Below are positions 2,685 through 21,678 of a stretch of DNA of 64,000 nucleotides, in pieces. The stretch is from assembly GCA_013201395.1 (NCBI GenBank), contig JABMJD010000005.1, forward strand, positions 24,381 to 88,380, read 5' to 3'. The position numbers and the translations under genes were made by a program. Source of the stretch: Candidatus Syntrophopropionicum ammoniitolerans. Its GTDB lineage: Bacteria; Bacillota; Desulfotomaculia; Desulfotomaculales; Pelotomaculaceae. The notes below the pieces were generated by a model. It made no database searches. It was not told the DNA's origin and saw only the letters and a list, made by a program, of their open reading frames with translations. The first letter of the stretch is position 1. Every line of letters starts with the position of its first letter.

Positions 2685-3272
2685 CTAATCTAACTTAGCT
2701 ATAAATTCATTAAAATCCTTAGGTGTATCAATGTCAAATATTACCGCCTCATCAGGTGCTTCTATATATTCTACCCTGTCTGCAAGCCTCTTAAGCACCT
2801 GCCTGGCACCTTCATCACCATCTAGGTTTTTCAATTCCTCGTCTAGGGATTTATTAAAAATCACTGGGTGCCCGGGAGTACCATTATAAACAGGCCTCAA
2901 CACCGCACAATCTCTGTTTTGGAACTCCCCTATAATCATATTTATCAATGAGGCTGAAATCATTGGTTGATCCACCATAAATATCATAAATGCATTTGCA
3001 CAGCTGCTTATCGTCCTGATTCCCAGGGACAATGAGGTTCCCTGGCCATCCTTATATCCTTGATTAAATACCACCCTCACAGGTAGGTCGTCAATCGCTG
3101 CAGTGACCTTCTTTTGTTGATATCCGGTCACAACAACAAGCTCATCGATATTTGAAAGCAGTACATTCTCAGTGACAATTCTTATCAATGTACTATTCCC
3201 TACTTTGAGCAGCTGTTTTGGTCTGCCCATCCTAGTAGACATGCCTGCAGCTAGAATGATTGCTGAAATCAT
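2685..3272 (-). CDS. mocA: Molybdenum cofactor cytidylyltransferase (MocA/YgfJ-like NTP transferase)
   Basis: ISAIILAAGMSTRMGRPKQLL, DQP, GHPVIF, GDEGAR and DIDTP motifs; lies next to XDH-family genes. Confidence 0.88.
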   Translation of the reverse strand: MISAIILAAGMSTRMGRPKQLLKVGNSTLIRIVTENVLLSNIDELVVVTGYQQKKVTAAIDDLPVRVVFNQGYKDGQGTSLSLGIRTISSCANAFMIFMVDQPMISASLINMIIGEFQNRDCAVLRPVYNGTPGHPVIFNKSLDEELKNLDGDEGARQVLKRLADRVEYIEAPDEAVIFDIDTPKDFNEFIAKLD

Positions 3273-3396
3273 TTTTCTATCAGTACCACCCCGGTTACTA
3301 TACTACAAAAAACCTTTTTCCTATGTTTAACCACAACAGAATTTTTGTCCAGCAATACGTCTTGTTCAACCAGTATTCTATTTGGTTATTGCCCTT

Positions 3397-4209
3397 TTAT
3401 CGTTGCCTGTCATAATTCGCAAGAAAGGTAAACACTGCTTCCAACACACCGCCACTAATGGACAGCGCTCTATCAGATATATTACTACAATCTATTTCTT
3501 TCCGCGGGTCTATATTGGCAATTCTTGTCCCCCTGGACACTATTACCCCTTCTCTTACCATCCCTCTTACAATACCGTTTATTTTAGCTCTTACAGGGGT
3601 GTTTCCCACTGCTACAACCCGGTCTCCCTTTTTTACCTTATCCCCAATGGCCAGTATATTTGTTACTATACCCTCCACAGGTGCCCTGAGCATTCTTTCC
3701 GCTGTGAACCCGCCTACATCCCCTGGGATGCCGGTGTTAGGGATAGCACCCCCGTTGTATATCACTCGTCCCAGTCTGTATCCGCGGCAGGTTTCTATAA
3801 CTACATTAACATCTTTGCCGGCCTCAAATCCTGGTCCCAATCCTATTACCAGTGGGGCATCATTTATATTTGTATCCAGGTTGCATTTAGCCATCCTGGC
3901 ATCAATCACTACCTGTGGAGAAATCTCCCCCACAACCTTAGTTTCCGGATCAACCAAAAGAGGAATCGTTCCTTTTTCATTCAAAGCCAGAGCATCTCTT
4001 ATTGAACCGGCAACGCTTGCTTTAATACCTTCAACACTTACAGTACCTTCATAGACAGCTTCCGCAAAGGCAACTTTTCTTCTCACCACAAGTGGGCTGG
4101 CAATCTCCGTCATGATTATATCTAACCCACACCTCTTAAGACGGTGTGCTACCCCTGTGGCTACATCATTAGCTCCTTTTACGACTGCAGTGATCCCTAT
4201 TCGACCCAT
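3397..4209 (-). CDS. yqeB: Selenium-dependent molybdenum cofactor biosynthesis protein YqeB (EF2563 family)
   Basis: VKGANDVATGVAHRL, VRRKVAFAEAVY, IGLGPGFEAG, VIETCRGYRLGR and SDRALSISGGVLEA. Confidence 0.88.
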   Translation of the reverse strand: MGRIGITAVVKGANDVATGVAHRLKRCGLDIIMTEIASPLVVRRKVAFAEAVYEGTVSVEGIKASVAGSIRDALALNEKGTIPLLVDPETKVVGEISPQVVIDARMAKCNLDTNINDAPLVIGLGPGFEAGKDVNVVIETCRGYRLGRVIYNGGAIPNTGIPGDVGGFTAERMLRAPVEGIVTNILAIGDKVKKGDRVVAVGNTPVRAKINGIVRGMVREGVIVSRGTRIANIDPRKEIDCSNISDRALSISGGVLEAVFTFLANYDRQR

Positions 4210-4313
4210 ATATGCTCCTGTTTCTATGAGGTTTTTCCTAGTATATCATCCTTTAATGAAAGCCCCTATTACAGTGTGGAAATAGCAGGTAAGTTAATTT
4301 TTTCTTTATATTC

Positions 4314-4380
4314 ATATTAACATCATTTCAGCAGTAAAGTGAAATATGCGTTTACGATGGGATTGATTGCTGTGGCTTAT
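4314..4380 (-). promoter_or_regulatory. Island promoter/operator element, copy 1 (upstream of yqeB)
   Basis: Minus strand: ATAAGCCACAGCAATCAATCCCATCGTAAACGCATAT-TTCACT-18 nt-TAATAT, with a TGn extended -10. Confidence 0.75.
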
Positions 4381-4440
4381 TAATTTGCCAAATAGACCCG
4401 TTATCCGGCAAAATCCTGTTTATATTAGTATTATTCCCAA

Positions 4441-5592
4441 TTAAGACACCCTGGTCCTGAGGCGTTCGATTACTTCCGGCATTAGCTTGAGAAACTCTTC
4501 CACATCCTCTTCTGTATTGCTCCTGCCCAGGGACAAACGAAGTGAGCCGTAGGCAATCTGATGGGGAATACCCATAGCCAAAAGCACATGGGAAGCACTT
4601 ACGGTACCGGCAGTACAGGCAGAACCACTTGATGCTGCCACTCCATGCATGTCCAAATTCAAAAGCATAGCCCCGCCATCTATAAATTCAAATACAAAAT
4701 TGGCATTGTTGGGCAGACGTATGGTAGGGTGTCCAGCCAGCCGAACATGACTAATTCCCTCGGTAACTCCCTTTATTAGTTTGTCCCGCAATCCAGCCAG
4801 ACGCGCACTTTCCTTTTCCATATCACCGGCAGCCAATTCAACTGCTTTTCCCATAGCCACTATACCCGGGACATTTTCGGTGCCTGGCCTATGCTTGCGT
4901 TCCTGTCCACCACCATAATTATAGGGGCGCCAGTTAATACCTTTTCTAATATAAAGCGCCCCGATCCCTTTTGGCGCATAGATTTTGTGGCCGGAAATAG
5001 AAAGCAAATCTGCCTTTAGGTCATTTACGTTAACTGGTATTTTGCCAAAGCTCTGTACCGCATCTGTATGAAAAAGGATATTTCTTTCCCTGGCAATATC
5101 CCCTATTTCCTGTATAGGTTGGATTGTTCCCACTTCATTATTAGCATGCATTATTGAAATGAATATAGTGTCGTCTCTTATTGCGTCAGCCACCACCTGA
5201 GGGCTAACCATGCCGTAGCCGTCCACCTGTAAAAGGGTTACCTCATATCCCTCCTTTTCCAGGGATTTGCAAGTGTCAAGAACCGCATGATGTTCTATAG
5301 AAGAGGTAATAATATGATTTCCCTTTTCCCTATTGGCGTATACTGCTCCCTTAATAGCCAGGTGATCAGCCTCTGTGCCGCCGCTGGTAAAAACCACTTC
5401 CTCTTTTTTAGCCCCTATGTTTTCCGCCACCTTCACCCTGGCCCCTTCAATGGCCTTTTTAGCCGTCCGGCCAAAAGAGTGAAGGCTTGAAGGGTTGCCG
5501 AATTTACCGGTAAGATACCCCATCATTTCTTCAGCAACATCCGGGTGGACAGGCGTTGTGGCACTATGATCAAAGTAAATTTTGCCCATCAT
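4441..5592 (-). CDS. nifS: Cysteine desulfurase (NifS/IscS group I)
   Basis: IYFDHSATTP, FTSGGTE, HTDAVQ, SGHK (PLP lysine) and SSGSACT (catalytic Cys). The start is trimmed to the ATG after GGAGG. Confidence 0.93.
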   Translation of the reverse strand: MMGKIYFDHSATTPVHPDVAEEMMGYLTGKFGNPSSLHSFGRTAKKAIEGARVKVAENIGAKKEEVVFTSGGTEADHLAIKGAVYANREKGNHIITSSIEHHAVLDTCKSLEKEGYEVTLLQVDGYGMVSPQVVADAIRDDTIFISIMHANNEVGTIQPIQEIGDIARERNILFHTDAVQSFGKIPVNVNDLKADLLSISGHKIYAPKGIGALYIRKGINWRPYNYGGGQERKHRPGTENVPGIVAMGKAVELAAGDMEKESARLAGLRDKLIKGVTEGISHVRLAGHPTIRLPNNANFVFEFIDGGAMLLNLDMHGVAASSGSACTAGTVSASHVLLAMGIPHQIAYGSLRLSLGRSNTEEDVEEFLKLMPEVIERLRTRVS

Positions 5593-5789
5593 AATCCTCC
5601 TAGTTTTCTGCATAGTTCTACCCCCAGCATACCGGTCGGATATGTAGGGGATTATGTTAGCATCTTCCCTTTGAGAAAGCCAACGCCGTTTGAGATAAAT
5701 CAAGACCACCCGCACTGCAGCGGGTGGCTTCTTCCAGCCTGTATATTCAACACATCGGTACTGCTACCGATAGGGTAGTCCATATTCAG

Positions 5790-6938
5790 CTATTGGTTGT
5801 TCTGAAAAATCTCCTTGAAAGCTGCCACCGGTTCAATAAACACCTCCAGGGTGCCCCCACAGGACATACCCTCAGCAGCCGCAACATCTGCAGTCATTGA
5901 TATCTTATGCACATAAGGTTCTGCATCATCTATTACATCTAAGGCCTGAACACGCACCTCTGACTCACCACAACAGCCACCGCCAATTGTTCCCACAGTG
6001 CGTCCGTCCCTGTATACAAGCATCCTTGCCCCTGCCTTGCGTGGTGTTGAACCTTTCGTTTTATAAATTGTTGCCAGTGCAGCAGGTGTATCCTCAATCG
6101 CCGCCCTGATTGCCTCTTGCAAGGCATCCTTATCAGCAGCAACGGGAATTTCACTATCATTTACACCGTTTTTGCTTGCACAGCTGTCTTCCACACAAAC
6201 TAGAGGCGCTGCACTACCACCTCTACGATCCTTGATCATTTCTGCTGCTATGCATACAGCGATTTCAGCCGGTGTTTGCGCACCCAGATCCAGGCCAATC
6301 GGCATATGCACCTGTTCAATTCTTTTCATCTCAATACCATCTTCCATCAACTGTTCCCTAATTGCTTTTACCTTACGCCTGCTCCCAATCATCCCCAGGT
6401 AGGCCACGGGGTACCTGACTACCTTACGTAAACAGTCCATGTCGTTAACATGTCCCCTGGTGGCAATTACAATACTGCTAGCAGGTCCCAGTTTAACATG
6501 ATCTTCTATTTCGTCAAAACTGCAACAGATACTTTTATAGACTCCCTCAAATCTTTCGGGGGAGGTAAAGTCAGGTCGATCATCTACAACCGTAACACGA
6601 TAGCCAAGTAAGTGTCCAATGTTCGCCAAAGGCTGGGCAATATGCCCCCCTCCAAAAATAATTAGTTCCGGCGTCTCCAAACAGGGGTCCATCATCACGG
6701 TTGCTTTTTGCTCCGGGGAGTTCGGATTAGCCATGTCTGCGACTAGAAACATACCGCCCTTCCGGCCTTCTTCTATCAATCGAACTACCTGCTCTTCCAA
6801 CCAGGGTAGCTGCAGGCTTCCCCTAATTTCACTGCTATCTTCAGTTAGCATTATTTTTGCACCCAGCAATTTTTTGTCTAGGTTCTTTTGTCCTATTATC
6901 GTCACAAATGTATTTCCCTGTTGTAGGTTTATTTCCAC
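5790..6938 (-). CDS. xdhC: XdhC/CoxI family Mo-enzyme maturation factor
   Basis: IFGGGHIAQPLA, YLGMIGSRRK, PIGLDLGAQTPAEIAVCI, KGSTPRKAGARM and CGGTLEVFIEP; GTG start. Confidence 0.9.
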   Translation of the reverse strand: MEINLQQGNTFVTIIGQKNLDKKLLGAKIMLTEDSSEIRGSLQLPWLEEQVVRLIEEGRKGGMFLVADMANPNSPEQKATVMMDPCLETPELIIFGGGHIAQPLANIGHLLGYRVTVVDDRPDFTSPERFEGVYKSICCSFDEIEDHVKLGPASSIVIATRGHVNDMDCLRKVVRYPVAYLGMIGSRRKVKAIREQLMEDGIEMKRIEQVHMPIGLDLGAQTPAEIAVCIAAEMIKDRRGGSAAPLVCVEDSCASKNGVNDSEIPVAADKDALQEAIRAAIEDTPAALATIYKTKGSTPRKAGARMLVYRDGRTVGTIGGGCCGESEVRVQALDVIDDAEPYVHKISMTADVAAAEGMSCGGTLEVFIEPVAAFKEIFQNNQ

Positions 6939-7370
6939 ATTCCTTACCCCCTCTTGGACAACGTGATACTCTGATACAATTATGATACTCGCACTCCATA
7001 CACGCCCTGTACAATCCTTCATCAGCCAGGACAATAATATACCTACCGTTTATCCATTTATCTGCCAACAACCGAGACAACAACAATTCAAGAATAATTA
7101 TCTAGGAATACATACCACACCTGCAAAACATTGCTCCCCTTCAGAGCATACTCATTCAATCTATGCAAACCCTGCGCTTCTTCTATATATTACCACATGT
7201 TCCCTTGGCTCTTGCAAGCCTTTACTCTTCTCCGTTACCACTCAAGATTCTCATAACCTTCAGGTTTATAATTCTCGACATTATTCTACATAATATTTTA
7301 TGCCTTGTCTAGCCCTCACTTTTGCCAGACCTAGCTTACTTTGCCTTTACTTATAATAGTTGATTAAGAT

Positions 7371-7398
7371 ATGAGAGACGATATATATCGTCTCTCAT
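7371..7398. terminator. Perfect 28-bp palindrome downstream of the Mo-enzyme operon (terminator or RNA-stabilising hairpin)
   Basis: ATGAGAGACGATAT/ATATCGTCTCTCAT; there is no strong U-tract. Confidence 0.5.
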
Positions 7399-7438
7399 GT
7401 CTACTATCCTAGCTTACCTTAGATTTTTGGATCCCGCT

Positions 7439-9784
7439 TTATTTCCCGTTTTCCTTCTTTTCTTTCAATGCACGCCATACCTTTTCATAGGTAATCGGCA
7501 GTTCGGTCATGCTGATTCCTATGGCATCATAAATGGCGTTGGCAACTGCGCCCATAGTCGGTGTCGTTGCACCTTCCCCAACCTCTTTACATCCATAAGG
7601 TCCGTTGGGCTCATAGCTCTCATCCAATGTTAAGGACTCAACAGGCGGCATATCAAGAGCTGTCGGCAGACGATACTCTGCAAAGTTACCGTTCAACAGA
7701 GCACCTGTTTTCGGGTCAAATTTAACTTCTTCCCAAATGGTCTCGCCGATACCCATGTAGAAGGCGCCGTGAACCTGGCCGTGGAACAGTTTCGGGTTAA
7801 TGATTGTGCCGCTGTCGTGCACGTCCCAGGTATCCACACATTCAATTTCGCCAGTTTCCATGTCAACCTTAACCTCTGCTACCTGAGTTGCGCTACTGTA
7901 TGCTGGGGATGTACCAACTGCTGCACCCTTGTGGTTGCCACCCAGTTTGCCGGGGTGATACCAGCCGCGGCCAACAAGTGCACCGTGGTCAACAAAGTAT
8001 TTACGTGCTACTTCTTCAAATGTTAGTTTAACAGCCGGTTCCTGCTTAATATACACAATACCGTCTTTGCATTCCAGATCTTCAGTGGTCAATGGGCCAT
8101 CCAGGTAACCAAAACCTTCTTTGACCCGTCCGGATGCTTTCAGCATTTCACAAGCTTTAGCAAGAATTTTTTTCTTGACTTCTGCACCCGCTCTAGTGAC
8201 AGCCCAACCAGCCATCAATGTCTGTCTGCTGGCATAGGCGCCAAAGTCCAAAGTGGAAAGGTCGGTATCCCCTGTTACCATTTGGCACTGCTCATAAGGA
8301 TATCCCATTGCTTCTGCTGCCATCTGCATCAGCACTGTGCTACTGCCCTGACCGATGTCAATTGCGTTGGAATACACATAGGCTCTGGTACCATCGTCAA
8401 ACACCTTCACCATGCCGACAGAGTGTGGATAGTCAGTCCGGTACTGGCAGAAGCCTGCACCAGTTACAAACCCACCGTTACCAACACCAATTCCTCTACC
8501 GGGGCCCATTTTACCTCTCTTCTCGGTCCAACCGGAAGCGTCACGGGCCATTCTGTTGGCGGCAAGCAGGTTATAGGACTTAACCTCATAACCGGCTGTG
8601 GTAATACTATTACCCTTACGGGCGTTAATCAGACGCATGTCGATCGGGTCTACACCAATTGCTTCTCCAACAAGGTCGATATGGCTTTCAAAGGCAAATC
8701 TTGGCTGCGGCTGTCCGTGGCCCCTTTGTGCTCCACAGGGAGGTAGGGTTGTGACTATACGCTGGCAGTCAAATTTGTAGTTCTCAATGGGGTACAATAT
8801 GCCCAGCAGGGAGCCGGCATAGTAAGAGGATGCAATGCCCAGTCCGGTATAGGCGCCGCCCTCTAGAACACAATCAAATTTGTGAGCCACTATCTTACCT
8901 TTTTTGTCCACGCCGGTGGTCAGGGTCATGGTCATGGGGTGACGGCCGTGGCCATTCAGGAAGGTCTCATAGTGGTCGAACCAAACCTTCACTGGTCTCC
9001 CAGTAAGCTTGGCCAGGATTATTGCGGCAAATTCTGTACCGCAGGTGTCCAGTTTACCACCAAACCCGGCGCCAACATTAACCGCACGCACAGTCAGGTT
9101 ACCCATTTTCATGCCCAGAACCCTGGCTATGTGATACTGGTCATAGTGCACTGATTGTGTAGTGGTATACAAAAATGCCTTATCTGCTTCCCAATAGGCT
9201 GCAGCACAATGGTTTTCGATGAAGGCGTGATAGGCGCGCTGCCCTTGGAATTTGTCAGTGCGCACATAATATGCGTCTTTTAATGCCTCATCCACATCAC
9301 CGAAATGGTGGTGAATTTCAGTGTTAACGTTGCCGGGATACTCATCAAAGATTTGCGGTGCCCCTTCTTTTACAGCATCCTGCCAGGTGAGGACCGGCTC
9401 TAGTTCTTCATATTCTACCTTGATCAGTTTTAGTGCTTTATAGCAGGTTTCCTCGTCTATCGCACACACCGCACCGATTTTATCACCATGATATCTTACT
9501 TTGTCAATACAGAAAATATTTTCGTCGAAGCGAGCAGGGCTTAACCCATATTTCATGGATGGAACATCTTTTGCCGTGATAACCGCCACTACGCCGTCGA
9601 GTTTTTCTGCTTCAGAGGTATCTATACTCTTAATGCGTCCGTGAGCTATTGTGCTGCGGATCAGCTTACCATAGAGCATACCTGGGAATTTTAAGTCAGC
9701 TACATATTGCGCGTGTCCAGTTGTTTTTCCATATGAGTCATTCCTGTCAACGCTGTGTCCTACATATGAATAATTTTCTTTCAC
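7439..9784 (-). CDS. Xanthine-oxidase-family molybdopterin-binding large subunit, most similar to 4-hydroxybenzoyl-CoA reductase alpha (HcrA-like)
   Basis: GAGFGGK, PPCGAQRGHG, DIGQGSST, GAAVGTSPAYSSATQVAEV and GPYGCKEVGEG. PPCGAxRGHG and the GAAVG/GSAIG segment are HcrA-like. Probable GTG start at 9784. Confidence 0.85.
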   Translation of the reverse strand: MKENYSYVGHSVDRNDSYGKTTGHAQYVADLKFPGMLYGKLIRSTIAHGRIKSIDTSEAEKLDGVVAVITAKDVPSMKYGLSPARFDENIFCIDKVRYHGDKIGAVCAIDEETCYKALKLIKVEYEELEPVLTWQDAVKEGAPQIFDEYPGNVNTEIHHHFGDVDEALKDAYYVRTDKFQGQRAYHAFIENHCAAAYWEADKAFLYTTTQSVHYDQYHIARVLGMKMGNLTVRAVNVGAGFGGKLDTCGTEFAAIILAKLTGRPVKVWFDHYETFLNGHGRHPMTMTLTTGVDKKGKIVAHKFDCVLEGGAYTGLGIASSYYAGSLLGILYPIENYKFDCQRIVTTLPPCGAQRGHGQPQPRFAFESHIDLVGEAIGVDPIDMRLINARKGNSITTAGYEVKSYNLLAANRMARDASGWTEKRGKMGPGRGIGVGNGGFVTGAGFCQYRTDYPHSVGMVKVFDDGTRAYVYSNAIDIGQGSSTVLMQMAAEAMGYPYEQCQMVTGDTDLSTLDFGAYASRQTLMAGWAVTRAGAEVKKKILAKACEMLKASGRVKEGFGYLDGPLTTEDLECKDGIVYIKQEPAVKLTFEEVARKYFVDHGALVGRGWYHPGKLGGNHKGAAVGTSPAYSSATQVAEVKVDMETGEIECVDTWDVHDSGTIINPKLFHGQVHGAFYMGIGETIWEEVKFDPKTGALLNGNFAEYRLPTALDMPPVESLTLDESYEPNGPYGCKEVGEGATTPTMGAVANAIYDAIGISMTELPITYEKVWRALKEKKENGK

Positions 9785-9806
9785 TACGCTCACCCTCTTC
9801 CTTTCC

Positions 9807-10310
9807 TTAGAGTTCTTTAGCCGCATCTAATACGGCCGCAACAATGTTCACATAACCTGTGCAGCGACACAGGTTACCTGCTATAGCTTCACGTACATCG
9901 TGGTCTGTGGGATTGGGGTTCTCATTTAGCAGCGCTCTGGATGACACAATCATGCCAGATGTACAAAAACCACACTGGAATGCTGCGTGCTCAACGAATT
10001 TTTCCTGCACAATGTCCAGGTCTTCCCCGTCTTGAATACCTTCAGCAGTAGTAATCTCATGCCCATCACAATCCATAGCCAACACCAGGCAGGAGTTAAC
10101 CGGCTTGCCATCCATCATTACTGTGCAGCATCCACAGTCTCCGAGCTCGCAACCTCTTTTAGTACCGGTTAAATCGAGATCTTCCCGCAGGAAATTTACC
10201 AGCAGTGTATTTGCTTTAATTACTTTTGTATATTCGCTACCATTAACGCCTATGGTGACCGCATAGCGTTTGATTCCTTTTTTATCTACAACAAAGCTAG
10301 ACATTTTCAC
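9807..10310 (-). CDS. 2x[2Fe-2S] small subunit (CoxS/HcrC type)
   Basis: GTKRGCELGDCGCCTV...NSC and QCGFCTSG...NLCRCTGY. Confidence 0.95.
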   Translation of the reverse strand: MKMSSFVVDKKGIKRYAVTIGVNGSEYTKVIKANTLLVNFLREDLDLTGTKRGCELGDCGCCTVMMDGKPVNSCLVLAMDCDGHEITTAEGIQDGEDLDIVQEKFVEHAAFQCGFCTSGMIVSSRALLNENPNPTDHDVREAIAGNLCRCTGYVNIVAAVLDAAKEL

Positions 10311-10324
10311 CTCTCCTTTCCTTT

Positions 10325-11194
10325 CTATACGTGTCCCTCGTCAACAGCCTTGCGCAGTGCACGCTTCGTGAATATACGCACCAGGTCTGTGCGGTATTCG
10401 GCAGATGCCCTAATATCGGATATCGGCTTGCATTCACCAGAAGCAATTACACCGGCTTCTGCTAACACATCGTCAGTTACCTTTTTACCTTTTAGGAATT
10501 CTTCAGTTTTCTTCGCCCTTACAGGAGTAGCTGCAACAGCACCCAATGCTACTCTCGCATCTTTTATAACACCGTTTTCCACCTGAACAGCAACAGCCAC
10601 GCCTACCACAGCCAATGCGCCAGACTTACGCAGACCAAATTTAATGTAGTTACTACCCGTCATTTTCTGTTCAGGGATAAATATTTCTGTAAGCACCTCG
10701 TCATTTGCCAGAACAGTCTTGCCAGGACCAGCAAATACGTCTTCCATAGCCAGGGTCCGCTCACCCTTAGCGCCAACCAATTTAGCAGTTGCGTTAAGAG
10801 CAATTAAAACAGGCGGCAAGTCAGCTGACGGCACAGCACTTACTATATTGCCGGCAATTGTACCCCTGTTGCGCACCTGGTTATTGGCCATTTGTCTGGC
10901 CGCATTTGCTACGGAAGCAAATTTCTCCTTTAATACATCTGACTTAACCAGGTCGTTATGTGTACACAATGCGCCTACGCTAACGCCTTTGCCTGCAACG
11001 TATTCAACTTTTTTCAGCTGCTCCAGATTTTTAACTGAAACAACCACTTCCGGAGCAAGCAATTCATTTTTCATCTTGACTACCATGTCTGTCCCGCCGG
11101 CAAGCACCTTAGCCTTTTCCCCAAATTGTGCTAAAAGCTGGCATGCCTCCGCGACGCTTTCCGGTGCATAATACTCGAAATCTGGTAGATACAC
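10325..11194 (-). CDS. FAD-binding medium subunit (CoxM/CutM type, without a [4Fe-4S] insertion)
   Basis: LAGGTD, QVRNRGTIAGNI and SDIRASAEYR. Only scattered Cys residues, and no Cys-rich loop after the GN motif. Confidence 0.93.
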   Translation of the reverse strand: MYLPDFEYYAPESVAEACQLLAQFGEKAKVLAGGTDMVVKMKNELLAPEVVVSVKNLEQLKKVEYVAGKGVSVGALCTHNDLVKSDVLKEKFASVANAARQMANNQVRNRGTIAGNIVSAVPSADLPPVLIALNATAKLVGAKGERTLAMEDVFAGPGKTVLANDEVLTEIFIPEQKMTGSNYIKFGLRKSGALAVVGVAVAVQVENGVIKDARVALGAVAATPVRAKKTEEFLKGKKVTDDVLAEAGVIASGECKPISDIRASAEYRTDLVRIFTKRALRKAVDEGHV

Positions 11195-11440
11195 GTTTTC
11201 TCCTCCTCTTTTTTGGTAATAATCTTCTGCACACCAAACAAACCCCGTCTCTTCTGCTTAGCTTCTTGCATCACCATCCTCTTTAAATTTGAAGCTTTCC
11301 TGTTACCAGCTATTCAGATCCTAGACAATGACTAACTCATTAACTGCTCTCAAACTGCCTTCAATACCTTAAAACATCTTGAAAATTCAGAACCTAATGA
11401 CTGGGACATACTAACCCTATACGATTTCTTTACCGGTTTT

Positions 11441-13321: not shown

Positions 13322-14755
13322 TTATTGGAACATGCCAATTGAAGTCCAGTATGGGATTGATATAGCTAGCGTAATCAGCACGGCCACACCATAAACCATA
13401 CCATACGTAGCACTTTGTCCGCTTGTCCAGGACCTCTTCTCGGCAATGGACTCTGCCACTAAAGCAAACATGTTTGTATAGGTTAGGAAGAAGCAGTTTG
13501 CTGCCATTATGAAGAGGGGTACCCAAACCAAAGGATTAATGCCAAAGTTGTTTGCTATTTCAGGCAGTATCGGTATAAGGATAGTCATGGTGGGTATAAA
13601 TACTGCCACATCAAAGAACCTCAAAATGAAGAACAGTATTATGATGGAGTAGCACAACATCCAGGGGCTTGATGTCAACGGCGCGATTAGGGGTACTAAA
13701 ACACCTACCAACCATTTGTTTACACCAGTTACACCAAAAACGCCGCCAATACTCATGGCCACACCAATAAACATGATTAAATCCCAGCTGATACCTGTAC
13801 TGATTTCCGGCCCTTTGACAACGCCGAAAGCTGTCAGCAAAAACAGTCCAGCCAGCACTGTAGCCCCGTCCGGTATACCATGCATTTTGTTGGTAAAAAA
13901 CATAAGGAAGCAGACTGTAAGAACTATCGCACTAACAATTTGATCCTTATTCCATGCACCTAGTTTAGTATAAGCCTCTTGAAAATACTCTTTTTTCAAG
14001 GTTATCGGTTCACTTGGTTTTAGGGCAAAATAACCACCGACAATGAGGATCAGGGTCAACACCAGGGCAGGGATTAACATGACCTGCAGGTAAGAACTAA
14101 AAGTAAGCATTCCTTTCAAATCAGGAATAGCTTCCATCATACCCAAAATAATTGGGCCATGCAGTGATCCGGTAAGCCAACCTGTTCCTGGTATAACAGC
14201 CATGGCCCAGGCGGTTAGCAGTAACAAAGCACTACCTTTTGATTTAAGCTCCAGCTGGCAGGCCTCAATAACACTTACAGCAATGGGCACAATGATTACG
14301 CAACGCACTGTAATTGAAGGGGTGAGGGCTGAAAGGGCCAACCCAATGATGACAAAGGCCACAATTAGCATCGGGTAGGAAGGGTTGAACATTTTCATCA
14401 CTAAAAAACCAATTCTCTTACCCAGCCCGGTTTTGATCAGTACAAATCCGAAGAACAGCGCTGGAATTAGAGTCCACAGGGCACCACTGGTAAATCCTGA
14501 AAAAACATTGGGTGCAGGAACCTTAATCGCCAATGTAAACAGCAGGAAGAAAAACCCTGCAACGGATCTGGGAATATTCAGCGGCGCGAATATCCACATA
14601 CCGATAGTCACAATTAAGGCAAGTAACACCAAATGACCTTCCGGCGGCAAATCCGGCACCCAGGGCTTTGCTAGTCCAACATAAAGGGCCAGAATGAGCA
14701 TTACTAGAAAAAATGCATCTGTAACTTTAAATTTTAAACCATTTTCTGTCGTCAT
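13322..14755 (-). CDS. DASS/SLC13 family carboxylate-anion transporter
   Basis: Many TM segments; FSGFTSGALWTLI, KTGLGKRI, LTPSITVR and ISWDLIMFIG. Confidence 0.85.
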   Translation of the reverse strand: MTTENGLKFKVTDAFFLVMLILALYVGLAKPWVPDLPPEGHLVLLALIVTIGMWIFAPLNIPRSVAGFFFLLFTLAIKVPAPNVFSGFTSGALWTLIPALFFGFVLIKTGLGKRIGFLVMKMFNPSYPMLIVAFVIIGLALSALTPSITVRCVIIVPIAVSVIEACQLELKSKGSALLLLTAWAMAVIPGTGWLTGSLHGPIILGMMEAIPDLKGMLTFSSYLQVMLIPALVLTLILIVGGYFALKPSEPITLKKEYFQEAYTKLGAWNKDQIVSAIVLTVCFLMFFTNKMHGIPDGATVLAGLFLLTAFGVVKGPEISTGISWDLIMFIGVAMSIGGVFGVTGVNKWLVGVLVPLIAPLTSSPWMLCYSIIILFFILRFFDVAVFIPTMTILIPILPEIANNFGINPLVWVPLFIMAANCFFLTYTNMFALVAESIAEKRSWTSGQSATYGMVYGVAVLITLAISIPYWTSIGMFQ

Positions 14756-14953: not shown

Positions 14954-16522
14954 CTAGTCGCCGTTCTTCACCAACATCTCCCTGAGCTTACCCCACTTGG
15001 GTTGGAATATTTCTTTCGGCATTTCTTTCAAATCGGGAGAAATCACAGGCTCAAATTCTATTTGCGAAAGAACGTCTTTCTCCAGATCCACTCCTGGCGC
15101 AATTTCAGTCAGCACCACTTTGCCGTCCTTCAGCACGAATACGGCACGTTCGGTAACATAGATTACTTCCTGGCCTCTTTCGGCGGAGTATTTACCACTG
15201 AAGGTGACGTGTTCGCACTCTTTAACAAACTTTTTGATTTTGCCTTCCTTCAAAATCTTAAGTTTGCCGTCAGATACCTCATATTCTGCACCACTGGCAG
15301 TCATGGTACCACAGTACACAACCTTTTTAGCAGATGAGGATATATTAACATAGCCGCCCGGGCCTACTACTTTCGGTCCAAACTTGCTGACGTTGGTATT
15401 TCCCTCTTCATCAATTTGGGCTGCCCCCAGGAAGCATATATCCAGCCCACCGCCATCATAAAAGTCAAACATGCTCGGGTGATCAACAATGCAGTCAGCG
15501 TTAATCGCTGCCGGGAAGTCCATGCCTTGTGCCGGGATACCGCCAAAGGCGCCTAACTCGATGGTGAGTGACATCAAGTCAGCCACGTTTTCATCTGCGG
15601 CAGTATTGGAAACTGTATCCGGCATACCGATGCCCATGTTGACAATAGCGCCTGTTCTCAATTCCATAGCTGCCCTACGGCCAATAATCTTACGCTCGTC
15701 AAGAGGAATAGGTGTAACCTCAGAAAGAGGCTTTCTAATACGCCCATCAAATGCAGGCTCATTTAATGTAACCCTGGTCTGCAGGTGGTTTTCTGGTTTA
15801 GCAACCACAATGTAGTCCACCAGAGCGGCAGGAACCTTCACGTTTTTGGGGTTAAGTGTCCTGGCCTGGGCTATATATTTAACCTGTGCAAATACAATAC
15901 CACCGTTTCTCTTTGCTGCCATTGCTATATGGAGCGCTTCTAGGAACAGCGGCTCCTCATCCATAGTCATATTGCCTTCCTCGTCGCAGGTGGTACCGCG
16001 GATCATAGCCACATCAATGTCGAAGGGCTTATAATACAGGTATTCCTCTCCCTGGAAGTTAACTAATTCAACCATATCGTCTTTGGTGATATCGTTGATT
16101 TTACCACCCTGCCGGCGGGGGTCAACATAGGTACCCAATCCTACCTTTGTAAGCACACCTGGTTTGCCGCCGGCGATTTGCCGGTATAAATGCGTCAGAA
16201 CGCCCTGCGGGAACAAGTGGCACTCGCATTTATTGCTCAGAACCAGTGCCCCCAGCATAGGTGCCTCACCAATATGTCCGGCAATATGCTTTCTAACCAT
16301 TCCCTCGTGACCTACGTGACTCATTCCCCTGGTTTTCCAGTCACCACAACCGCAACTGTGGGTGTTAAAAAGATCCCTGGGATGCCCGGTTTCCAAAAAA
16401 CTTTTCTCAAGCGCTATAGCCAGCTCTTCTGGAAAGCCGCACAAACCAGCAGTGATCCATGCTACAGTTGAACCATCTTTCACCAATGGGCCAACTTGCT
16501 CCGGGGTAATAATTTTGGACAT
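14954..16522 (-). CDS. Acyl-CoA:acetate/3-ketoacid CoA-transferase, fused family I (YdiF/Pct-like)
   Basis: FPQGVLTHLYRQIAGGKPGVLTKVGLGTYVDPR, NMGIGMP, TIELGAFGG, FYDGGGLD and GPGGYVNI. Confidence 0.92.
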   Translation of the reverse strand: MSKIITPEQVGPLVKDGSTVAWITAGLCGFPEELAIALEKSFLETGHPRDLFNTHSCGCGDWKTRGMSHVGHEGMVRKHIAGHIGEAPMLGALVLSNKCECHLFPQGVLTHLYRQIAGGKPGVLTKVGLGTYVDPRRQGGKINDITKDDMVELVNFQGEEYLYYKPFDIDVAMIRGTTCDEEGNMTMDEEPLFLEALHIAMAAKRNGGIVFAQVKYIAQARTLNPKNVKVPAALVDYIVVAKPENHLQTRVTLNEPAFDGRIRKPLSEVTPIPLDERKIIGRRAAMELRTGAIVNMGIGMPDTVSNTAADENVADLMSLTIELGAFGGIPAQGMDFPAAINADCIVDHPSMFDFYDGGGLDICFLGAAQIDEEGNTNVSKFGPKVVGPGGYVNISSSAKKVVYCGTMTASGAEYEVSDGKLKILKEGKIKKFVKECEHVTFSGKYSAERGQEVIYVTERAVFVLKDGKVVLTEIAPGVDLEKDVLSQIEFEPVISPDLKEMPKEIFQPKWGKLREMLVKNGD

Positions 16523-16729
16523 CGTCTCTTCTCCCTTCAAGTTCTAATCTCGAATCCTAATCTCCCTAAACCAAAAAAACTGTAATGAATCCCAAACCAC
16601 TGCAAAAAACAGGATAACTCTAAGCTGTCTCCCTCTTACAGCTTAAAAAACTTCACCTCTTTCCCATATGTATTGAATATATATCAACTTCTGCAACATG
16701 CAGAATTCCACTTCCCTTATTCAGGTTTA

Positions 16730-16796
16730 ATATTACCACCCGTTAACAAGCAAAGAGAAATATGCGTTTACGATGACATTGATTAGCAATGCCTAT
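16730..16796 (-). promoter_or_regulatory. Island promoter/operator element, copy 3 (upstream of CoA-transferase/DASS)
   Basis: Minus strand: ATAGGCATTGCTAATCAATGTCATCGTAAACGCATAT-TTCTCT-18 nt-TAATAT, with TGn. Confidence 0.75.
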
Positions 16797-16849
16797 AAAT
16801 ATTGCGTTCTTAACTGCACCGGCAGCAGCTGCAGGCGGGAAAATAAATC

Positions 16850-18187
16850 CTAGAATGTACGTTTATTACTTTTGCGCCAAATACCCATTTCCCCGGCGCT
16901 TTTAATCAACTCCTCACGGAAATCCGGGTGAGCAATAGAAACCAGGGCTTCTGCTCTTTGCCAAAGGGTTTTACCCTTCAGGGAGGCAATTCCATATTCA
17001 GTTACTATACTGGGGGCCAGGCCACGCTGAATAGAAACCACTGAACCCGGCTCCAGTACAGGCCGGATTCGGGAAAAAACCCTACCGGCACTGCTATAGG
17101 TCGAAGCCATACATATGAAACCTCTTCCCCCTTTTGACCGAAAGGAGCCCTCGGCAAAACAAATAGAGCCTCCGGTACCACTGATTTGCCGAGTGCCGGA
17201 TGACTCAGAATTTATCTGACCATAAAGGTCCACATCTATACAACTGTTAATAGATATGAAATTATCCAATTGACCGATTATGTAGGGATCGTTGGTATAA
17301 TTTACGGGCATAAACACACACATTGGATTTCCGTTGATGAAGTCGTATGTCCTCTGGGTGCCGAGAGCGATGGTGGCAACTATTTTATGTCTGTCCATAC
17401 TCTTCCTTGCCCCTGTTACCCGGCCCTTTTCGACCATATCCACCATAGAGTCCACAAACATTTCAGTATGAATTCCCAGGTCCTTTAAATCAGACCCCGC
17501 GATCATTTCCCCCACCGCATTGGGCATGCCGCCAATACCTAGTTGCAGACAGCAACCGTCCGACAACTGTTCAATAATTAACGAGGCGATCCTCCTATCA
17601 GTATCATTTGGCTCGGATGGAGCTATTTCGGAAATCGGATAGTCAGCCTCGACAATATAATCGACCCGGGAAATATGGATCCCATTTTCTTGTCCCAGAC
17701 AACATGGCATGTTGGGGTTAACTTCCAATATGATTATTTTACCTGCCTCACACATGGCCATAGTGTGCGAAATCTGAGGTCCAAAATTAAAGCAACCATG
17801 TCTATCCATAGGAGCAACTGGGATCATTACCACATCAACATCAATATAACTACGGTAGTATTCGGGTAGTTCGCTATAGACCAGGGGGATATAAAAACAA
17901 CGTCCCTGATCACCCAGCTTGCGATCAGAGGCACTAAAATGCCAGTTATTATATATAAAATGCAGGCCCGCCGGATCAGCTTTCACTATCTCTGGGATAC
18001 CGGCCACGCGCGTAGTACAACGTATTTTTACATCCCTGAGCTCATCTTTTCTGGCAGCCAGGGCCTTGTCCAGAGCCACCACACACCCGGAAAAAGAACC
18101 ATATTCAACCCAATCTCCCGATTTTACTGCCTCAACCGCCTCAGAAGGTGCAACGAGTTTTTGTTTATACATTTCTGCATAATCCAT
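16850..18187 (-). CDS. Acetyl-CoA hydrolase/transferase family CoA-transferase (butyryl-CoA:acetate / 4-hydroxybutyrate CoA-transferase-like)
   Basis: [46 protein letters not shown] and ISGTGG. Confidence 0.9.
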
Positions 18188-18261: not shown

Positions 18262-19677
18262 TCATACTCTAGCGGTAGCTTTCTCGGCTCCCTTTGTTGA
18301 TACTTCTCCTGTATCTACTATTGAGGGCCTGTTATCACGGAAACGCTTTGCCTTAAGCTCGTAAACCGGTAGCGTACCCGGGGTCAACAACTCAACCTCC
18401 ATGCTGATCATGAAAGACAGTTGCAGCTTCTGAGCTATCTTTTTGCGCAGTTCATCCCACAACCCGGGATCCACATCATGCTTCGGCTCCACTCGCACAG
18501 TTATCCTATCCATCCCGCCTTCTGTCTTAGTTGCAATATACTCGTAACTGTCAGAACATTCCGATATTCCCCGGATCACGTTTTCTATCCCCGCAACTGA
18601 CACACACACCCCACGTATCTTAATTATGTCCCCTACCCTGCCCATAAATCCTTTCATTACGCTCAGGGTTCGGCCACAAGCACATGTTGCGCCCGCTTCT
18701 ATGCCCTTGACCAGGTCACCTGTTTCAAACCTAATACAGGGATGGGTTTTGCTTATTAGATCAGTGACCACCAGCTTCCCAGATTCACCCGGGGAAACCG
18801 GCTCATCTGTCTCAGGGTCCAACACCTCACAATATGCCAAATCCTCATTTATATGCCCTACCCCTTCTTCACATAGCCAGGCCAGGTAATGTGTTTCCTG
18901 AGTACCGCAATAATCAAATATCTCTGCCCCCCAGGCTTCTTCCAAACGTACACCAGTGTTTGGTATGGACATCTTACCGGGCTCACCAGCGGTTAAAATT
19001 ACCCTTATCCCAAGAGTCCGAGCATCAATACCGTTCTCCTCAGCAACTTTTGCCAGGTGCAAAAGATAGGTCGGCGTACCCATTAGTACCGTTATACCCA
19101 GTTTTCTGATCATTGTCAGCCGCATCAGACTACTCCAAATACCGCCTGGGATAACCAGGGAACCTATCAAATGCTCACAACAGTCATAGGCAGCAGCCAA
19201 CCCGAGGAAAGGGGTGAAACCAAAGGCAGCATGCACAACATCTTCCTTCCTAATTCCCGCGGCCCACACAGCACGAGCTGCACCGGCGCAATAAACCCCG
19301 AAGTAATCCTCCTCTGTAAATGGTATGATCACCGGTTCTCCAGTGGTCCCCGAGGTCATACCGATGCGAATGAAAGGCCCCCTGCCTGGGACACTCATCA
19401 TTCCATAGGGAGGATCCTGCTCTTGACTTAATCTTATTTCTTCTTTATGAAGAATCGGTATACGCCCGATATCGTCAAGCGTTCTCAATAATGCCGGGCA
19501 AAAATTGCTTTCTTCCCATTTTTGGCGGTAAAACGGGCTCTTTTCCCAAAGGTAATTTATTTGCTCACGTAACCTAGCCAACTGAAGTTTCTTCATCTCT
19601 TTATGCGGCATCGTTTCTGCAGGGGACCAATACTTGTAACCAACAGCAGCGTGTTGCTGAATACCGTTCATAAACAT
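18262..19677 (-). CDS. Phenylacetate-CoA ligase (PaaK)-like aryl-CoA ligase
   Basis: TSGTTGEP P-loop, GTPTY, YCGTQE, IRFETGDL and GRVGDIIKIRGVCV. Confidence 0.85.
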   Translation of the reverse strand: MFMNGIQQHAAVGYKYWSPAETMPHKEMKKLQLARLREQINYLWEKSPFYRQKWEESNFCPALLRTLDDIGRIPILHKEEIRLSQEQDPPYGMMSVPGRGPFIRIGMTSGTTGEPVIIPFTEEDYFGVYCAGAARAVWAAGIRKEDVVHAAFGFTPFLGLAAAYDCCEHLIGSLVIPGGIWSSLMRLTMIRKLGITVLMGTPTYLLHLAKVAEENGIDARTLGIRVILTAGEPGKMSIPNTGVRLEEAWGAEIFDYCGTQETHYLAWLCEEGVGHINEDLAYCEVLDPETDEPVSPGESGKLVVTDLISKTHPCIRFETGDLVKGIEAGATCACGRTLSVMKGFMGRVGDIIKIRGVCVSVAGIENVIRGISECSDSYEYIATKTEGGMDRITVRVEPKHDVDPGLWDELRKKIAQKLQLSFMISMEVELLTPGTLPVYELKAKRFRDNRPSIVDTGEVSTKGAEKATARV

Positions 19678-19929
19678 AATAAAATAACATCTCTCTTTCT
19701 CTTACCAGACTATTTTGCCAGGAGTTATACCAAGCACAATTGGTGTTTTTGGAGCACCATCCTCTGGCTTGCTTAGTAGTAGAATAGAGCATTTCAACAA
19801 TACATGGTGTTTGTCACTATACCCGTGTCAACTCATATGTAATTGGCTGTACCCAGTTGTCCTGATCCACCACCACCATAATTGTCTGCAAGATATAGAA
19901 ATTCCGATTCGTAAATTTATCCTATTTTC

Positions 19930-19995
19930 ATTATCATTCACAACGCGGGCAAAGTGAAATATGCGTTCTCAATCGGATTAATAGGTTTTACTAAT
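19930..19995 (-). promoter_or_regulatory. Island promoter/operator element, copy 4 (upstream of the PaaK-like ligase)
   Basis: Minus strand: ATTAGTAAAACCTATTAATCCGATTGAGAACGCATAT-TTCACT-17 nt-GATAAT. Confidence 0.7.
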
Positions 19996-20178
19996 AAATA
20001 CGGTTACCTTGTGTCTAAAACACAAGACCAAGCCACCAGGGCTTAAAATATAAAAAAAGTTGGATCCTAAATGTCCCAACTTTTTACCTGTTCCACAATA
20101 TACCATTGCCCTGGTATTTGAATAATTTTTATGAACACGTCCACATCTTTTTAGGGAAAATAAATTGCCCATTCCTAT

Positions 20179-20373
20179 TTAACACGATGAATAATAGAGA
20201 CGAATTAAATTAAAGTCCTTTCTCTCCTTGTTTTTATTTTCAAGCGTTTTTATGGCGTATTTTAGATTATCTAAAAATTTTGTTACATTGATCCAACCAC
20301 CAAATTTTTCATCATAAACATACACAACCCTTGGGCTATCGTTTATTTCTCCGGATTTAAATGTATTAAGCAC
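20179..20373 (-). CDS. Small hypothetical protein (64 aa)
   Basis: GTG start after a G-rich RBS; AT-rich; no recognised motif. Confidence 0.4.
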   Translation of the reverse strand: MLNTFKSGEINDSPRVVYVYDEKFGGWINVTKFLDNLKYAIKTLENKNKERKDFNLIRLYYSSC

Positions 20374-20527
20374 TATTCTTCGCCCCCCGACTTTTGATAC
20401 TCCCTTTTATCCGGGGCAACCCAATAGTAAGCTGTCGTTACAATAAAGCCTCTGTAGCTCCCGGTAATACCTTCCAAAACTATTATGCTAACCTGCAAAC
20501 CACCAGTCCTAATAGGTTACACCACTT

Positions 20528-21508
20528 CTAATTGATTTCAAAAAATATCCGCCCATCAATCTCAATTTTTTTGACAACCCCAGTATGCTGTAGGTATTCA
20601 AGATGGGTAGCAGCCTCGCCAACAGCAAACACCTTTTGAGCAAGGGGGAACAAATCCCAGGATGATGGGGTGATATCCCAGGTCATCTTGCCGGCAACAT
20701 TGTAAGCATTCATCCGCCCATTCCCCAAAATTACTAGAACCTCCTCGAGCCTGGCTTGATGGTGCTCCTTTAGCTCACCAATTCTTTTGCTGATATCACG
20801 AATAAGGCTCTGGTGACCAGTGAGGACAAGCTCTATTTCTAAACGATTAATCTTATCAAGACTTTGCAGATAATGGCCCAGCGGGTTTTCAATATTCTTC
20901 TCAAAGGTTATATTTGGGGTGATATCATCAAGAATATGATCTCCCGAAATCAAAACCTTGCTATCGGGCTCATAAAGACATATATGTCCAGGTGTATGGC
21001 CAGGGGTTTCTATAATGGTAAACCTATAGTCACCAACCTCAACAACATCGTCCTCAGCCAGGATGGTGAAGATCTGTTCCTTACGTGCGCTAAACCTTCT
21101 ACCAGGGTGATTATGCATAGCAGTATGCAGATCTTCTATCGGAAAACCGTGCATACCGAACACTGCTCCAATTTCCTGCCAATAGTTAGTCGCACCCGCC
21201 ATAGCATTTACTATTTCAGAATCGATTCTTCCACAATATATTTTTGACTTTTCAGTGGCTACTTCCCCAGCAAGGCCACTGTGATCTGCATGTAGATGCG
21301 TAAGCAGAATATCGGTTTTTTCAAAAGCCACATCGAGGGCAGCAAGGCCATCAAACAGCGCCTTCCTGCTCTCCTCCCGGTTCCATCCGGTGTCAATCAA
21401 TAAATTTCGTTCCCGACCTTTAATCAGGTAGGAATTTGTAGCCCCAAGGGGGCTCCTGGGGAGAATAACTTCAATCTTGTAAATACCCGGCAGGATTTCT
21501 TGAACCAG
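20528..21508 (-). CDS. Metallo-beta-lactamase-fold hydrolase, probable CTG start
   Basis: THLHADHSGL, TPGHTPGH and SGDHIL. The frame stays open 108 nt upstream of the track start and reads (M)VQEILPGIYKIEVILPRSPLGATNSYLIKG. Confidence 0.88.
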   Translation of the reverse strand: MVQEILPGIYKIEVILPRSPLGATNSYLIKGRERNLLIDTGWNREESRKALFDGLAALDVAFEKTDILLTHLHADHSGLAGEVATEKSKIYCGRIDSEIVNAMAGATNYWQEIGAVFGMHGFPIEDLHTAMHNHPGRRFSARKEQIFTILAEDDVVEVGDYRFTIIETPGHTPGHICLYEPDSKVLISGDHILDDITPNITFEKNIENPLGHYLQSLDKINRLEIELVLTGHQSLIRDISKRIGELKEHHQARLEEVLVILGNGRMNAYNVAGKMTWDITPSSWDLFPLAQKVFAVGEAATHLEYLQHTGVVKKIEIDGRIFFEIN

Positions 21509-21612
21509 CTTTAGCGCCCCCCTAATTGGATTTTATCTAAAAATACCGCCACAAAAACCTGGATCCGGCAACTATGCCTTTCCCCACAATGCTGTTGTCA
21601 ATGTTGATTATT

Positions 21613-21678
21613 ATCTTACAACCCAAAAAAAACAAAGTGAAATATTTATTGACGATTACACTAATTAGCTGGGATTAT
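21613..21678 (-). promoter_or_regulatory. Island promoter/operator element, copy 5 (upstream of the MBL hydrolase)
   Basis: Minus strand: ATAATCCCAGCTAATTAGTGTAATCGTCAATAAATAT-TTCACT-17 nt-TAAGAT. Confidence 0.7.

Follow-up and report, generated by a model that had tools for sequence, protein, structure and literature searches.

4-Hydroxybenzoyl-coenzyme A (CoA) reductase (4-HBCR; EC 1.1.7.1 type), defined by a ferredoxin-dependent reductive dehydroxylation that gives benzoyl-CoA, is known from Thauera aromatica (HcrCAB; PDB 1RM6 and 1SB3) and Rhodopseudomonas palustris (HbaBCD) as an assembly of a molybdenum (Mo) subunit carrying molybdopterin cytosine dinucleotide (MCD), a subunit that bears a pair of [2Fe-2S] clusters and a flavin adenine dinucleotide (FAD) subunit. 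The same architecture is encoded in a 64,000-nucleotide stretch of the Candidatus Syntrophopropionicum ammoniitolerans genome (contig JABMJD010000005.1 of assembly GCA_013201395.1; the whole stretch is called the window), within an island of 13 genes (Table 1). The alpha (Mo) subunit has HcrA as its best match in both the PDB and NCBIfam, and a CoA ligase is co-encoded, as in the two known systems. Unlike them, the island enzyme falls under the HcrA equivalog cut-off (35% identity) and has a beta (FAD) subunit without the [4Fe-4S] insertion, while the island adds YqeB and NifS, CoA-transferases, a DASS-family transporter and a LysR-type regulator, and has no downstream benzoyl-CoA pathway. We propose that it serves to dehydroxylate 4-hydroxybenzoate to benzoate by way of a CoA-transferase loop, in keeping with the physiology of Cryptanaerobacter phenolicus; we hold this to be probable, though by no great measure.

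Closer relatives of the enzyme occur in strict anaerobes. HcrA-like enzymes encoded at a Desulfoscipio gibsoniae locus (L004) and in a cluster of a genome from the same family (G023) belong to the same clade, share 55-60% identity with the island enzyme and likewise have a 289-aa FAD subunit. XdhC/YqeB/MocA maturation and links to UbiD/VdcC-type (de)carboxylases and PaaK-type ligases are also held in common. By comparison, the island enzyme is derived and long-branched, its genes are spread over five promoters that appear to be LysR-dependent, two CoA-transferases, the DASS transporter and a metallo-beta-lactamase (MBL)-fold hydrolase have been added, and it is confined to genomes without the ring-cleaving hydrolase Oah.

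Cryptanaerobacter phenolicus, a Pelotomaculum relative of the same lineage as the source genome, converts phenol via 4-hydroxybenzoate to benzoate as the end product (Juteau et al. 2005, as cited in PMC5946492). A Cryptanaerobacter metagenome-assembled genome (MAG) contains genes for 4-hydroxybenzoate decarboxylase BCD, 4-HBCR and ligases (PMC5946492), and the kit predicted here is alike: a decarboxylase of BCD type, a 4-HBCR-like enzyme and CoA ligases. For the release of benzoate that paper proposed ligases, whereas our reading of the island has a CoA-transferase loop. Among Firmicutes, Enterocloster bolteae possesses a reductive phenol dehydroxylase of the xanthine oxidase family, Ucdh (UcdCFO), which is ~33% identical to 4-HBCR; assays of urolithin C dehydroxylation by the purified enzyme used NADH as reductant, XdhC is needed, and its medium subunit is described simply as a flavin (FAD) subunit (bioRxiv 10.1101/2025.01.17.632430). 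A xanthine-oxidase-family enzyme supplied with NADH can therefore dehydroxylate reductively. The substrate of Ucdh is a free lactone, while that proposed for the island enzyme is a CoA thioester.

The CoA economy proposed below resembles that of caffeate respiration in Acetobacterium woodii (CarA/CarB/CarC), in which a ligase primes the cycle and a CoA-transferase then passes CoA from product to substrate. The likeness is one of logic, a reductive step on an aryl-acyl-CoA serving as electron sink: in A. woodii a flavin-based enoyl-CoA reductase reduces a double bond of the side chain, whereas the island would use a Mo enzyme on a ring hydroxyl. For the enzyme family, the selenium signature and the physiology there are precedents. 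The novelty lies in how they are combined: two CoA-transferases and a DASS carrier belong to one conserved, apparently LysR-controlled regulon that is confined to genomes without ring degradation.

An earlier note on this DNA, made from the sequence alone, had read the island as a system that takes up a hydroxylated aromatic acid, activates it with CoA and then dehydroxylates (or hydroxylates) it in a Mo-dependent reaction. The gene content and the HcrA placement of the Mo subunit support that reading, and all 13 genes it named were recovered in place by open reading frame (ORF) listing with Pfam and NCBIfam scans. All of them lie on the minus strand with the sole exception of lysR. Like 4-HBCR, the enzyme is built of Mo-MCD, 2x[2Fe-2S] and FAD subunits accompanied by MocA and XdhC. 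The Mo subunit scores 861.9 bits against TIGR03194 (HcrA) and 548 against XdhA, which makes HcrA the top NCBIfam model by more than 300 bits, and in the PDB Thauera HcrA (1RM6_A) reaches 462 bits with the runner-up at 236. The grouping with purine or aldehyde oxidoreductases that, by the earlier note, would have refuted its reading was thus not observed, both comparisons placing the subunit with HcrA. A D. gibsoniae protein that bears the annotation HcrA is 57% identical to the subunit. In the HMMER alignment TTTQS, GAGFGGK, PPCGAQRGHG and GCKEVGEG lie opposite matching HcrA stretches; these correspond to Mo-centre motifs of the enzyme family. An IQ-TREE phylogeny places the subunit inside a large clade of HcrA-like proteins from strict anaerobes (support 100/100), among them Desulfoscipio, Thermincola, Desulfosporosinus and actinobacterial MAGs, and within that clade in a long-stemmed Pelotomaculum-type subclade. 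The only characterised outgroup in this tree was Thauera HcrA, its sequence transcribed from the PDB-search alignment.

The FAD subunit (289 aa, three Cys) is of a different make from HcrB. CutM/CoxM proteins are its best PDB matches (172 bits), HcrB (1RM6_B) aligns partially with 61 bits, and TIGR03195 covers the C-terminal half alone; the subunit therefore lacks the Cys-rich [4Fe-4S] loop of HcrB. In the Thauera enzyme this loop is thought to drive reverse electron flow. It is likewise missing at every strict-anaerobe HcrA-like locus examined, in Firmicutes, Actinobacteria and Deltaproteobacteria. Literature searches for the loss of HcrB-type loops in obligate anaerobes, and for the relation of furoyl-CoA dehydrogenase to 4-HBCR, gave nothing usable.

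The maturation genes listed in the earlier note were confirmed and can be specified further: YqeB is among them, and YqeC is encoded elsewhere. Together, YqeB, NifS, XdhC and MocA are by their family assignments a maturation set of the selenium-cofactor type, in which MocA would synthesise the MCD cofactor and NifS is the probable sulfur or selenium donor to the Mo centre. Selenium-dependent Mo hydroxylases need a labile selenium atom at the Mo centre for activity. In published work YqeB serves as the marker of these enzymes (PMC2276186), and Clostridioides difficile requires it for selenium-dependent purine use (PMC11448449). Here YqeB is encoded with the enzyme, scoring above its family cut-off, and selD is present in the genome (contig C9, 14279-15205; 394 bits) with one in-frame TGA, so that SelD is itself a selenoprotein. 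The island Mo enzyme may be a selenium enzyme. YqeC (TIGR03172/PF19842), which lies within the island in relatives, is found in the source genome on contig C72. That contig (L015, ~9500-16200) encodes a second three-subunit Mo enzyme, whose alpha subunit is 36% identical to that of the island, with its own XdhC and YqeB and the genome's sole YqeC.

A link to phenol metabolism is provided by the cluster in G023, an Oah-positive genome of the same family. One co-directional cluster there encodes a PaaK-type ligase, the FAD (289 aa), FeS and Mo subunits, VdcC, VdcD, VdcB, XdhC and MocA, with a MobR-like phenol regulator beside it in divergent orientation. Its Mo subunit scores 1127.6 bits against TIGR03194, above the cut-off of 994.55. 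The cluster ties the HcrA-like clade, together with its insertion-less FAD subunit, to phenol/4-hydroxybenzoate metabolism. Orthologues of its ligase (80%), VdcC (73%) and MobR-like regulator (51%) are retained in the source genome, a 2.36-Mb MAG of a strict anaerobe, 91% complete, close to Pelotomaculum and near-identical to 'Peptococcaceae bacterium AS23ysBPME_176'. There the island Mo enzyme is the only HcrA-like enzyme, and no Hcr of the canonical (G023-like) type was found. The genome holds two VdcC+VdcD hydroxyarylic-acid decarboxylase loci scoring above the NCBIfam cut-offs. On contig C62 the locus is flanked by VdcB and by those paralogues that come closest to the island LysR (50%) and to the first CoA-transferase, CoAT1 (66%); on contig C46 it adjoins a MobR-like regulator of phenol type.

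A census was taken across 36 genomes of the family, counting Mo subunits of at least 77% identity as island type, those of 55-60% as canonical type and CoA-transferases of at least 65% as CoAT1 orthologues; the genomes are mutually related, so the counts are a pattern and not statistics. Island-type Mo subunits occur in 13 genomes, 11 of which also encode a VdcC above the cut-off, and no genome has both island and canonical types. Within +/-10 kb of the island no VdcC gene was found in relatives; the link between the two consists of this co-occurrence and the G023 cluster. Oah is absent from all 13 island-type genomes (79% to 100% complete). CoAT1 orthologues are present in 18 of the 36, and in none of the five that are Oah-positive. 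They adjoin HcrA-like genes in 11 of the 13 island genomes and lie 1.5-6.2 kb from them in six Oah-negative genomes of canonical type. The pattern is consistent with a CoA-transferase that accompanies the reductase where benzoyl-CoA is not degraded further. The earlier suggestion of ATP-saving CoA recycling gains support from it, since a YdiF-like transferase stands beside HcrA-like genes only in Oah-negative genomes.

Genes for ring degradation were sought throughout the source genome. Neither Oah (TIGR03200) nor any member of the aldehyde:ferredoxin oxidoreductase (AFOR) family (PF02730), and hence no BamB, was matched in the 91%-complete genome, nor was a multi-subunit set resembling benzoyl-CoA reductase (BCR). 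A candidate class I BCR was rejected, as the only strong HGD-D match (PF06050) is a lone 425-aa gene without partner subunits. The absence of ring-reduction genes that had been remarked for the window thus holds in a bam/bcr search of the whole available genome.

The remaining enzymes of the island can be assigned to families. CoAT2 scores 581 bits against TIGR03948 (cut-off 675) and 262-314 bits against 4-hydroxybutyrate CoA-transferases in the PDB, while the PaaK-like ligase matches 2-hydroxyisobutyryl-CoA synthetase (216 bits) and PaaK (181 bits). DASS orthologues (73-97%) occupy the same position in 12 of 14 related loci (at least 77%), and in the remaining two the contig ends before that site.

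The genes are bound together by a repeated promoter element. A repeat search bore out the element described in the earlier note: five copies, each upstream of a minus-strand operon head (yqeB, the FAD subunit, CoAT1, the PaaK-like ligase and the MBL gene). An nhmmer profile of the five, run against the whole genome, returned these five only (E 1e-17 to 1e-23; next match E 0.04). With the same profile the element is also detected at 12 loci of relatives (78-90% identical at the protein level), in each case before the same genes: before yqeB in L010, L021-L024 and L026, before the FAD gene in 11, before CoAT1 in all 12 that have that gene, and before the MBL gene in L034. In most of the 12 relatives an extra, weaker copy precedes lysR, and in every relative lysR and the element are found together.

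The consensus of 36 distinct copies comprises an ATTnAT-N11-ATnAAT dyad centred at ~-66, followed on the 3' side by CaATCGtaAAC..ATATTTCaCTTT, a block reaching the -35 sequence TTCaCT, and then an extended -10 sequence, TGnTAAgAT. A promoter scan of the paaK copy gave TTCACT-17-GATAAT at 19958-19930. A T-N11-A dyad near -65, a block reaching -35 and a regulator gene inside the island are the features by which promoters of LysR-type transcriptional regulators are recognised. Because of this anatomy of dyad, -35 and extended -10, the element is to be seen as a LysR-activated promoter and not a mobile repeat. By its distribution it appears to mark a regulon specific to the island, with the island LysR as the presumed activator. 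The regulon comprises five promoters, possibly six.

A divergent sixth copy was found on contig C46 (41221-41268; L055 ~8220-8290), reading ATTTAT-N11-ATTAAT followed by CAATCGGCAAC. It is weak (nhmmer E 0.04) and precedes by ~200 nt the gene of a stand-alone ligase of PaaK type (L055, 6627-8021), the 80% orthologue of the G023 cluster ligase. The island operons have long 5' leaders (~125-275 nt). A riboswitch or leader RNA in them was considered and rejected: with Rfam at gathering thresholds the whole window gave only a T-box at 44060-44324, and no conserved block other than the promoter was found among the leaders of the five copies. The 30-aa plus-strand ORFs within the element are a by-product of the conserved DNA and were discarded.

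We propose the following pathway for the island. The substrate, a phenolic acid and most likely 4-hydroxybenzoate, would either be imported or be formed from phenol by the two VdcCD carboxylase/decarboxylase systems. The DASS carrier would import the acid, possibly in exchange for benzoate; the DASS family includes antiporters such as CitT. The PaaK-like ligase would form the first acyl-CoA in an ATP-dependent priming reaction. The HcrA-like Mo/FeS/FAD enzyme, matured by XdhC, MocA, NifS and YqeB and perhaps carrying selenium, would then remove the ring hydroxyl reductively to give benzoyl-CoA. One or both CoA-transferases would hand the CoA of benzoyl-CoA on to a further molecule of substrate, saving ATP, and the MBL protein, a candidate acyl-CoA thioesterase, may act as a relief valve on surplus thioester. 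Benzoate would finally be exported, given that genes for reducing and opening the ring were not found. The net reaction would use two reducing equivalents and so offer an electron sink to a syntrophic fermenter; the island is probably such a sink and not a degradation pathway.

Several observations weigh against this assignment. The Mo subunit misses the TIGR03194 equivalog cut-off (861.9 against 994.55 bits) and is a mere 35% identical to the one 4-HBCR that is defined biochemically and structurally, that of Thauera; its long branch may reflect altered specificity. Thauera HcrA itself is separate from the anaerobe clade in the tree, where its long branch adjoins an archaeal homologue, and the tree consequently does not fix the relation of that clade to the proteobacterial enzyme. 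The literature yields no assayed member of the Pelotomaculum-type subclade or, as far as found, of the wider Gram-positive clade. To these come the missing [4Fe-4S] loop, the mere 38% identity between the island ligase and the ligase of the G023 hcr-vdc cluster, the non-independence of the census genomes, and the fact that the DASS, CoA-transferase and MBL families carry no signal specific to aromatic compounds. Pelotomaculum propionicicum carries the island and is, to our knowledge, described as a user of propionate only.

The alternative that survives best keeps the chemistry and the CoA loop and changes the phenolic acid. This would make the enzyme a neofunctionalised 4-HBCR offshoot, acting on 3-hydroxybenzoate, protocatechuate, a vanillate-derived acid, or a hydroxyphenyl-acetate or -propionate. 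The sub-threshold HcrA score and the long stem of the subclade speak for such an offshoot, as does the island's possession of its own ligase, regulator and transporter, the ligase being so distant from the canonical partner. In Sporotomaculum hydroxybenzoicum, a related bacterium, 3-hydroxybenzoate receives its CoA by transfer from acetyl- or butyryl-CoA before it is dehydroxylated, and CoAT2 of the island belongs to the butyryl-CoA:acetate type. VdcCD-type enzymes, named 'hydroxyarylic acid decarboxylase' in NCBIfam, also take vanillate and protocatechuate. Yet the two types of reductase never occur in one genome, and the canonical ligase, VdcCD and phenol-type regulator have been kept without canonical Hcr, a combination that fits replacement of one enzyme by another better than the acquisition of a new function. 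The weak copy of the element before the canonical ligase orthologue points the same way, and we consider a different phenolic substrate unlikely.

A second alternative reverses the chemistry. Running in the oxidative direction usual for its family, in the manner of furoyl-CoA dehydrogenase or nicotinate dehydrogenase, the enzyme would hydroxylate a (hetero)aryl-CoA or free acid with water as source of the oxygen, and the MBL protein and CoA-transferases would process the ring-opened product. This would suit an FAD subunit of the CoxM/CutM type lacking the reverse-flow cluster, and lactonases are found among MBL-fold proteins. Beside the island in three relatives of 78-80% identity (L001, L010 and L011), upstream of CoAT1, lie genes for a PaaK-like ligase, an 80-aa ferredoxin and a 619-aa aldehyde:ferredoxin oxidoreductase of the tungsten type, which could oxidise an aldehyde such as furfural to its acid. 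Maturation of the YqeB/SelD type has so far been tied to hydroxylases (PMC2276186, PMC11448449). Against this stand the position of the Mo subunit inside a clade whose genes cluster with VdcCDB and a phenol-type regulator, the presence of VdcC in 11 of the 13 island genomes, and the absence of genes for a ring-opened product from the island and from its conserved relatives. No NCBIfam hydroxylase model comes near the score of the HcrA model (HmfA is not among the models), and an oxidative role seems to us quite improbable.

That the same organism converts 4-hydroxybenzoyl-CoA to benzoyl-CoA and goes on to full ring reduction and hydrolysis would be the textbook role of 4-HBCR, and is conceivable in a genome whose completeness leaves room for further genes and whose family includes members combining HcrA-like genes with Oah (G010, G011, G022 and G023), but it is very improbable in view of the missing Oah, AFOR-family (BamB) gene and multi-subunit BCR-like set, the lack of Oah in every island-type genome, and the little sense that a CoA-transferase beside the reductase would make if benzoyl-CoA were consumed onward.

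Returning to 4-hydroxybenzoate dehydroxylation with benzoate as product, a more far-reaching form of the proposal may be called 'hydroxybenzoate respiration'. Here a selenium-dependent, loop-less variant of 4-HBCR, fed by NAD(P)H or ferredoxin, would be combined with a DASS antiporter and a benzoyl-CoA:hydroxybenzoate CoA-transferase loop; we offer this tentatively, as it is doubtful that every part of it will hold. If it is true, propionate-oxidising syntrophs thought to be obligate could dispose of electrons without a methanogenic partner, and would be agents of phenol-to-benzoate conversion in anaerobic digesters. Phenol and hydroxybenzoates accumulate in such digesters, and the genes of their known conversion to benzoate are undefined. 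The island supplies a complete candidate gene set comprising transporter, ligase, two CoA-transferases, reductase with maturation proteins, putative thioesterase, regulator and operator. Three questions are brought into focus as well: what provides the reductive drive in strict-anaerobe relatives of 4-HBCR without the extra [4Fe-4S] cluster, whether these enzymes use selenium, and whether syntrophs of the Pelotomaculum group, including P. propionicicum, which is in culture, possess an electron-accepting metabolism that has stayed hidden. A CoA-transferase beside the reductase only where ring degradation is lacking is moreover a genomic marker that could separate dehydroxylators from degraders in metagenomes.

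Table 1. Genes, promoter element copies and intergenic hairpin of the island, in positions of the window.
Feature	Position	Strand	Details
MocA/YgfJ-type molybdenum cofactor cytidylyltransferase	2685..3272	-	PF12804 129 bits; TIGR03310 177 bits (cut-off 186)
YqeB, accessory protein, marker of selenium-dependent Mo hydroxylases	3397..4209	-	TIGR03309 329.7 bits (cut-off 220)
Element copy 1	4302..4399	-	upstream of yqeB-mocA; nhmmer E 1.6e-19
NifS-type cysteine (or selenocysteine) desulfurase	4441..5715	-	TIGR03402 560 bits (cut-off 531)
XdhC-family Mo-cofactor insertion chaperone	5790..7034	-	PF13478, PF02625; NF045664 276 bits
Hairpin (inverted repeat), directly after the Mo subunit gene	7367..7402	-	18-nt arms, 94% complementary, no spacer
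Mo-cofactor (alpha) subunit, HcrA-like, Pelotomaculum-type subclade	7439..9826	-	TIGR03194 862 bits
2x[2Fe-2S] subunit	9807..10310	-	PF01799, PF00111; 10 Cys
FAD (beta) subunit, CoxM/CutM type	10325..11194	-	289 aa, 3 Cys
Element copy 2	11429..11524	-	upstream of FAD-FeS-Mo operon; nhmmer E 3.6e-23; leader ~245 nt
LysR-type regulator	12140..13135	+	PF00126, PF03466
DASS-family anion transporter	13322..14755	-	PF00939 90 bits; TIGR00785 107 bits (below cut-off)
CoAT1, fused family-I CoA-transferase (YdiF/Pct type)	14954..16540	-	PF01144; PDB E. coli YdiF 2AHU 480 bits
Element copy 3	16719..16813	-	upstream of CoAT1-DASS; nhmmer E 2.3e-22
CoAT2, 4-hydroxybutyrate / butyryl-CoA:acetate-type CoA-transferase	16850..18187	-	PF02550, PF13336
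PaaK-family acyl-CoA ligase	18262..19677	-	PF00501, PF14535
Element copy 4	19916..20011	-	upstream of PaaK-like ligase and CoAT2; nhmmer E 4.6e-18
MBL-fold metallo-hydrolase	20528..21508	-	PF00753; 327 aa, CTG start
Element copy 5	21602..21696	-	upstream of MBL gene; nhmmer E 4.1e-17

Two gene starts call for comment. The TIGR03402 alignment of NifS begins at residue 46, and orthologues at the same position in relatives are 382-392 aa long, so the true start is probably ~44 codons downstream of the ORF start. The MBL gene of the earlier note is present, though the ORF given for it was too short and the gene extends from 21508 to 20528: the 331-aa orthologues of L029 and L034 align in frame as far as 21508 (tblastn). 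It starts with CTG (21506-21508), seven bases after a strong AGGGGGG ribosome-binding site, where the orthologues start with ATG. The CTG could be a rare start codon, a sign of incipient gene loss or a MAG consensus error.

Lying between the structural and the maturation genes, the hairpin that follows the Mo subunit gene may be a terminator or a processing site. Two further strong hairpins, with 17-nt arms (100% and 94% complementary), fall within 13164-13283, where lysR and the DASS gene end convergently, and are probably bidirectional terminators. A 76-aa hydrophobic ORF (11636-11866) shows no conservation, even in a locus with 99% protein identity, and is probably no gene. The island is bordered by a ParB/Noc-like gene (21850-22668) and an AMP-forming acyl-CoA ligase gene (22992-24470; NF004837 479 bits), both without the LysR element. 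A 64-aa ORF (20179-20373, minus strand) lies in the interval from the MBL gene to the paaK promoter; it is kept just upstream of the paaK element at the start of L023 (79% over 52 aa) and in part in L021 and L028.

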